The notes under the pieces were generated by a model. The model was not told the origin of the DNA. It ran no database searches and saw only the letters and a program-made list of their open reading frames with translations. A stretch of DNA of 64,000 nucleotides from Escherichia coli. GTDB taxonomy: Bacteria > Pseudomonadota > Gammaproteobacteria > Enterobacterales > Enterobacteriaceae. The position numbers and the translations under genes were made by a program. Of this stretch, positions 31,138 through 31,544 are shown one piece after another. Every line of letters starts with the position of its first letter. Positions within the stretch are counted from its first letter, which is position 1. Location of the stretch: assembly GCF_048403405.1 (NCBI RefSeq), contig NZ_CP183129.1; one strand, written 5' to 3'.

Positions 31138-31143
31138 TTTCTT

Positions 31144-31161
31144 TGTTTAATTTACTAAACA
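31144..31161. promoter_or_regulatory. Candidate NadR operator (TGTTTA-N6-TAAACA) immediately upstream of nadB
   Basis: Perfect inverted repeat 7 bp upstream of the nadB start; fits the NAD-repressor box as I recall it. Confidence 0.55.
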
Positions 31162-31434
31162 CGGTTTGGTCAGCATAGCATCATGTTGTGCGATTAAACA
31201 CCTGCTATTTTAATATTTGTTACAGTGGCTAAACACGCTGACTCAGGGCGGCGAGAAAAAGAGAAGTTACTGGCTGGTGGAGGATTAGGTGGTGAAATAA
31301 AAAGGCCGTTGGGTTACTCTTCAGGCAGATAAATGGGCATTTCTACACAGATAATGCGATGTTCAGATTCTGTAGACTTATAATGATAGATAATGATCCG
31401 TCTACAGCATGACAAACAAAAACAGATGCGTTAC

Positions 31435-31462
31435 GGAACTTTACAAAAACGAGACACTCTAA
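31435..31462 (+). promoter_or_regulatory. Sigma-E dependent promoter of rpoE (-35 GGAACTT, 16-bp spacer, -10 TCTAA)
   Basis: Match to the sigma-E consensus about 85 bp upstream of rpoE; rpoE autoregulation is established. Confidence 0.7.
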
Positions 31463-31544
31463 CCCTTTGCTTGCTCAAATTGCAGCTAATGGAGTGGCGT
31501 TTCGATAGCGCGTGGAAATTTGGTTTGGGGAGACTTTACCTCGG

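Follow-up and report, generated by a model that had tools for sequence, protein, structure and literature searches.

NadR operator, stacked rpoE promoters, and the rseD leader peptide in the nadB-rpoE intergenic region of Escherichia coli

NadR operators are known at nadA-pnuC, pncB, and nadB, where the same palindrome is placed on the -10 element of a gene for NAD biosynthesis or shortly after it, and the published operator consensus is a palindromic 18-bp sequence, TGTTTA-N6-TAAACA (PMC2330245). In Salmonella, NadR binds a nadB promoter fragment in gel-shift and ChIP experiments, and nadB is repressed by NadR approximately 8- to 10-fold, reporter assays included (PMC12421817). Promoters recognized by sigma-E have likewise been defined, with the consensus GGAACTT / TCAAA (-10 TCNAA), a spacer of 15 to 19 nt of which 16 is preferred, a discriminator of 5 to 6 nt, a purine start, and upstream sequence rich in A and T (PMC1312014).

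The operon that encodes sigma-E is given as rseD-rpoE-rseA-rseB-rseC (PMC8595263), and six rpoE promoters have been reported, with starts at -381 (P1), -327 (P2 and P3), -218 (P4), -153 (P5), and -75 (P6); P2 is assigned to sigma-54 and QseF and P3 to sigma-70 and RcsB, P4 is RpoS-like, and P6 is the autoregulated promoter recognized by sigma-E polymerase (PMC8103513, PMC6358824). The numbering of these start sites comes from a review citing Klein et al. 2016 (PMC8103513). For the rpoE leader three CsrA sites have been reported, and two of these cover the Shine-Dalgarno sequence and the start codon (PMC7652899). [quoted passage not shown] NadR binding, sigma-E dependence, start-site positions, and CsrA binding are taken below from this literature.

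We analyzed the gap between nadB and rpoE in a 64-kb stretch of an E. coli chromosome (64,000 nucleotides, referred to here as the window). The genes on either side of it are as follows.

29515..31137, minus strand: nadB (L-aspartate oxidase) coding sequence, ATG at 31137-31135; ORF list, and RefSeq annotation of a 100% identical strain and of K-12.
31545..32120, plus strand: rpoE (sigma-E), true start ATG at 31545; ORF list and RefSeq annotation.

The gap between these genes spans 31138-31544 (407 bp), and both the ORF list and the annotation give exactly the limits that the preliminary description, made from the letters alone, had set for a divergent region of roughly 400 bp. A sequence search found it to be 100% identical to that of strain VCSW7 and present in 5,425 of 5,426 complete E. 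coli genomes, always chromosomal and in single copy, and the match in complete genomes carries the annotated feature "rseD: rpoE leader peptide RseD." The local gene order is srmB, trmN, and nadB (minus strand), followed on the plus strand by rseD, rpoE, rseA, rseB, rseC, and lepA; the order is the same in K-12 MG1655, where rseD is b4725. We are highly confident that nadB and the rseD-rpoE-rseA-rseB-rseC operon are both controlled from this region, which comprises a NadR operator, a promoter stack, a leader, and rseD coupling, and its length is explained by the presence within it of the six published rpoE promoters and the nadB promoter. Every element that the preliminary description named is already described and annotated in E. 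coli, and nothing about them is new; that first reading was accurate and rediscovered a textbook control region. What we add is a compact map, in window coordinates, of the published nadB/rseD-rpoE elements, checked against 24 to 42 related species.

For comparison we took one genome per species and scanned for RpoE, which gave 80 loci in Enterobacterales, Pasteurellales, and Alteromonadales; nadB is the divergent neighbor of rpoE in most of them. The gap itself was aligned for 24 species of Enterobacteriaceae/Erwiniaceae together with the window (25 sequences), and the coordinates, motif uniqueness, conservation, annotation, and family match reported here are results of this analysis. Judged by these alignments, the NadR box, P4, P5, P6, and the leader are conserved across Enterobacteriaceae, and the long rseD ORF and the sigma-54 -24 element are lineage-specific. 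An Rfam scan of 30900-31800 at E values up to 1 recovered no family, and a simple promoter and terminator scan of 31050-31650 recovered neither a sigma-70 consensus promoter nor an intrinsic terminator; the missing sigma-70 consensus fits activator-dependent or alternative-sigma promoters and gives them no independent support. We also considered as a possible gene a 35-codon ORF with a GTG start (31225-31332) and set it aside, as it has no NCBIfam match and lies where the alignment is least conserved and rich in indels.

Two elements on the nadB side of the gap concern NadR control.

31144..31161, no strand: primary NadR operator TGTTTA-ATTTAC-TAAACA (TGTTTAATTTACTAAACA); exact consensus match and conservation.
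31172..31180, minus strand: putative nadB promoter, extended -10 TGcTATGCT (AGCATAGCA); conserved block in the 25-sequence alignment.

The operator TGTTTAATTTACTAAACA has no mismatches to TGTTTA-N6-TAAACA and is the sole exact match in the 64 kb, where the pattern with at most one mismatch gives 2 matches versus 0.14 expected. A NadR-type operator had been proposed at precisely these positions, and the proposal stands on the exact and unique match in the motif scan, the published consensus, and the fact that nadB is a documented NadR target. All 18 bp of the box, the N6 spacer included, are identical in 23 of 24 Enterobacteriaceae/Erwiniaceae species, and in the 24th the half-sites are still perfect. 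The box closely follows the conserved extended -10 and stands 6 bp before the nadB ATG, and K-12 nadA has the same layout, with a NadR box directly after its -10 element. Both nadA and pncB of K-12 carry single NadR boxes with 1 mismatch each, whereas the nadB site is a perfect consensus; the invariant N6 spacer and a phased second, weaker box (described below) are additional at nadB, and we see no essential difference from the nadA and pncB sites. We infer that nadB transcription starts at approximately 31165-31166, which would place the NadR box at about +5 to +22, and NAD-loaded NadR bound just downstream of the extended -10 would then block RNA polymerase and repress nadB. An A/T (T-rich) tract at 31206-31212, which is likewise conserved in the aligned sequences, may serve this promoter as a UP element.

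A comparative motif scan found no NadR box in the Yersinia, Serratia, Rahnella, and Hafnia sequences. Gaps of only about 213 to 224 bp separate nadB and rpoE in these four genera, and the sigma-E promoter is kept in them. The long gap of the Enterobacteriaceae is thus the version that contains the NadR box and the distal promoters, since the gaps of about 214 bp are without the box.

The promoter nearest rpoE is the one recognized by sigma-E.

31435..31462, plus strand: sigma-E autoregulated promoter P6 (formerly P2), -35 GGAACTT, N16, -10 TCTAA; motif scan and alignment.

GGAACTT-N16-TCTAA occurs with no mismatches only here in the window, and the pattern with at most one mismatch gives 2 matches versus 0.14 expected. 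The preliminary description had placed a sigma-E promoter at these coordinates, and the exact match to the consensus, the preferred 16-nt spacer, and conservation across Enterobacterales all agree with it: nearly all of the Enterobacterales examined have the motif, and its offset hardly changes, in surrounding sequence that has diverged. An A-rich tract lies upstream at 31413-31425, and the conserved alignment block AAACAAAgGCGTAACGGAACTT...CTCTAA comprises P6 together with this tract. The promoter in the window is the same promoter as rpoE P6 of K-12, and between 31330 and the rpoE start the two sequences do not differ. A transcription start at approximately 31470 had also been predicted, and the published P6 start (-75) maps to C31470 (PMC8103513); G31469, one base earlier, is 6 nt past TCTAA and is likely the first base of the P6 transcript. 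Recognition of P6 by sigma-E would close a positive autoregulatory loop on rpoE.

The published starts were mapped to the window by counting from the A of the rpoE ATG, which puts P1 at 31164, P2/P3 at 31218, P4 at 31327, P5 at 31392, and P6 at 31470. Apart from P6, and from P2, which is taken up further below, the promoters placed in this way are as follows.

31164, plus strand: rpoE P1 start (-381); published position mapped to the window.
31291..31327, plus strand: rpoE P4 (reported RpoS-dependent), conserved blocks GTGAAATAAA and GTTACTCT; start -218 = 31327.
31379..31392, plus strand: rpoE P5, perfect TATAAT at 31379-31384 in the invariant block GACTTATAATGA; published start -153 = 31392.

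A plausible and suitably spaced -10 element is present upstream of each mapped start; for P4, P5, and P6 this element is a conserved block of the alignment, and upstream of the P2/P3 start conservation is weak. Promoters of sigma-70, sigma-54, sigma-S, and sigma-E would in this arrangement feed one conserved rpoE leader. The -10 region of P1 would fall within the NadR box. The P1 start (31164, plus strand) is adjacent to the predicted nadB start (about 31165-31166, minus strand), and the -10 elements of rpoE P1 and of nadB each lie within the early transcribed region of the other; with promoters overlapping to this extent, two polymerases and NadR would compete for the same ~40 bp. At P5, an inverted repeat, GTAGAC/GTCTAC (31373-31378 and 31400-31405), flanks the -10 element and the rseD start codon. 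We make no claim for this repeat, which has one pair that covaries between genera (T-A to C-G) and a covariation score that 36 of 500 shuffles also attain, and so is not significant.

Downstream of P5, the remainder of the gap is occupied by a short coding sequence.

31393..31548, plus strand: rseD, 51-codon rpoE leader peptide; ORF list, RefSeq annotation, and NCBIfam match.

The preliminary description had suspected a small upstream coupling ORF, possibly overlapping an 11-codon extension of rpoE in the ORF list. The suspected ORF exists, as rseD, according to both the RefSeq annotation and the NCBIfam family NF033697, but it is not the in-frame extension: rseD is in a different frame from rpoE and starts 152 nt upstream of it. 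RseD matches NF033697 ("rpoE leader peptide RseD") with 104.2 bits against a cut-off of 35 (E = 3e-30), residues 7 to 51 spanning the entire 45-position profile, and the 51-amino-acid sequence (WP_001303621.1) is identical in all eight E. coli strains checked. The rseD stop codon TGA (31546-31548) overlaps the rpoE start codon ATG (31545-31547) as ATGA (31545-31548). No Shine-Dalgarno sequence precedes rseD, and the published P5 start (31392) immediately precedes its ATG (31393), so that on P5 transcripts rseD would be nearly leaderless, going by the mapped positions.

Transcripts from P1 to P5 would carry rseD, and ribosomes ending translation of rseD could start on rpoE at the overlapping ATGA. 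The sigma-E promoter is located inside rseD, and for this reason P6 transcripts would be without the rseD start codon and could not use the coupling. Yakhnin et al. in 2017 reportedly found that rpoE translation drops by more than half when rseD is not translated. Escherichia and Citrobacter have ORFs of 51 to 54 codons with an ATG start, as does the unassigned, Enterobacter-like strain Ag1, with a different N-terminal half. In a number of other relatives, among them Pseudocitrobacter, Kluyvera, RIT691, Siccibacter, and Phytobacter, stop codons break up the frame or a start is missing, and across related species its length ranges from 0 to 76 codons. Coupling is therefore not general to the locus, as many related genera do not have the long rseD ORF. 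The comparison argues that what matters may be the act of translating rseD rather than the peptide, and this in some lineages only.

We also considered a conserved 19-codon upstream ORF beginning at Met33 of rseD (ATG at -56, 31489), a start that would be on sigma-E transcripts, and found it unsupported as a general feature: an ATG is present at this fixed offset in only 10 of 41 Enterobacterales, and in some species stops follow downstream.

All transcripts, whichever promoter they come from, carry the same leader ahead of rpoE.

31469..31544, plus strand: 5' leader common to all rpoE transcripts, ~76 nt; P6 start G31469/C31470 and alignment.

This leader is nearly invariant across Enterobacteriaceae, with almost all of the sequence from 31466 to the ATG conserved. 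GGA motifs are found at 31491, 31514, 31529 (in the Shine-Dalgarno sequence), and 31543 (at the start codon), and they are conserved in the alignment. The placement of GGA motifs over the downstream ribosome binding site is a likeness of rseD-rpoE to the iraD-ORF and evgL-evgA group, and at rpoE the reported CsrA sites are on the rpoE ribosome binding site itself. CsrA would occupy that site through the leader GGA motifs at the Shine-Dalgarno sequence and start codon.

Other explanations were weighed against this evidence. Short consensus matches are common, and the NadR pattern with at most two mismatches occurs 10 times in the 64 kb, which leaves room for the view that the NadR and sigma-E motifs are functionless chance matches in an AT-rich spacer; yet the exact matches to both are unique in the window, the NadR box is the same in 23 of 24 species, the sigma-E motif holds its offset while its flanks diverge, and experiments in the literature place NadR and sigma-E at the nadB and rpoE promoters, so that we give this view practically no credence. 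The 11-codon extension corresponds to an in-frame GTG at 31512 in the mechanical ORF list, and if rpoE began there, the sigma factor would be 11 residues longer and no separate upstream ORF would be needed. Apart from that list, this start has in its favor a frame that is open upstream of the ATG in relatives. It is contradicted by RefSeq, which has the ATG at 31545 in every genome inspected, by a Shine-Dalgarno sequence GGGGAGA (31527-31533) located between the GTG and that ATG, and by the invariance of the rpoE ATG and the codons that follow it, whereas Pseudocitrobacter has ATT in place of the GTG, which is thus not a conserved start; we regard the extension as an artifact of ORF listing and a start at 31512 as extremely unlikely.

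A role for RseD as a protein, as a trans-acting member of the envelope stress system beyond the act of its translation, would accord with its identical sequence in eight E. coli strains and with the existence of a curated family model. The nucleotides that are conserved in rseD coincide, however, with promoter elements, GGA motifs, and the Shine-Dalgarno sequence, substitutions in its last 12 codons are mostly at first and second codon positions, and the ORF is interrupted or startless in several genera, with its length falling anywhere from 0 to 76 codons. We consider a function of the peptide itself very unlikely, and return to the reading in which rseD acts on rpoE through its translation.

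How translation of rseD might open the rpoE start region can be approached through a predicted fold of the leader, in which the first bases of the P6 transcript pair with the beginning of rpoE.

31469..31476, plus strand: 5' arm of a predicted helix, GCUUGCUC, the first 8 nt of the P6 transcript; predicted fold.
31547..31554, plus strand: 3' arm of the predicted helix, GAGCGAGC, the G of the AUG and rpoE codons 2-4; predicted fold.

This 8-bp helix is predicted from a single sequence and again from the consensus of 24 species; among these species, five of the eight pairs never vary and the others differ in one or two sequences. Within Enterobacterales the helix is without covariation because its arms barely vary, and in Alteromonadales one pair changes from C-G to U-A, in keeping with the helix. 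Codons 2 to 5 of rpoE have near-absent synonymous variation in 42 Enterobacterales sequences (42/42, 42/42, 40/42, and 40/42, respectively), and from codon 7 on synonymous sites vary freely in the same set. A second, weak hairpin would pair GUUUGGGG with CCUCGGAU, taking in part of the Shine-Dalgarno sequence and the AU of the start codon, and the one-sided changes seen in it retain pairing. The folding of the P6 leader overall is no more stable than that of shuffled sequences (z = -0.08), and because of this we treat the helix as a lead and not as a result.

At the other end of the gap, the alignment contains a second sequence resembling the NadR operator.

31218..31235, no strand: degenerate NadR-like box TGTTAC-AGTGGC-TAAACA, 2 mismatches; conservation and spacing.

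The box corresponds to a conserved block, GTTgyA-N6-CTAAACA, whose right half, CTAAACA, is nearly invariant, and it begins exactly at the published P2/P3 start (-327 = 31218). In 21 Enterobacteriaceae species it lies 73 to 74 bp from the primary box, a distance of about seven helical turns, and in the same species its position relative to the rpoE ATG is anywhere between -304 and -462; the constant distance on one side and the variable distance on the other indicate that it is anchored to the nadB side of the gap. The fixed spacing and the near-invariant TAAACA half, together with the position of this box at the P2/P3 start and of the primary box over the P1 -10 region, would suit a model in which NadR uses two operators at this locus, looping the DNA between them and controlling the distal rpoE promoters P1 to P3 as well. 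Several points weigh against such a model: the left half of the second box is poor, with two to three mismatches, a match with two mismatches would arise by chance in a 400-bp gap with a probability of roughly 0.05, and a single box suffices at nadA and pncB. The conserved bases could instead be part of P2/P3 or of the upstream promoter region of nadB, and the literature accessible to this analysis reports no effect of NadR on rpoE. Control by two looped operators is in our judgment unlikely, and the primary box as the operator of nadB is the reading we retain.

A broader proposal combines this box with the predicted helix. Two phased NadR operators may allow NAD status to gate the sigma-E-independent rpoE promoters along with nadB, or the rpoE start may be masked by the 8-bp helix, in which case translation would depend on the promoter used and translation of rseD would open the helix, or both may apply; drawn from motif spacing and predicted pairing, the proposal strikes us as quite unlikely as it stands. 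If the two-operator reading were true, NAD homeostasis would be linked to the envelope stress sigma factor, and if the helix and two-box readings both held, they would explain why an upstream ORF is needed on some rpoE transcripts and not on others.

The P2/P3 start also allows a candidate site for sigma-54 to be placed in the window.

31192..31205, plus strand: candidate sigma-54 -24/-12 site of P2; the only GG-N10-GC arrangement fitting the -327 start.

We infer the assignment of this GG-N10-GC motif to the sigma-54 promoter P2 from the published start; a paper on genomic SELEX of RpoN does not mention the rpoE promoter. The site reads GCGGAT...TGC in K-12 and GCGATT...TGC in the strain of the window, so that the GG of the -24 element is lost, and provided that the motif is correctly placed, the window strain would be without a canonical sigma-54 -24 element. 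At -24, GCGAAT or GCAAAT is found in six other sampled E. coli strains, which include O157:H7, CFT073, and O111:H8. When searched as an exact 61-mer, the K-12 version was found in 1,032 and the window version in 518 of 5,426 genomes. E. albertii is likewise without the GG at -24 and reads GCGAAT or GCAAAT there.
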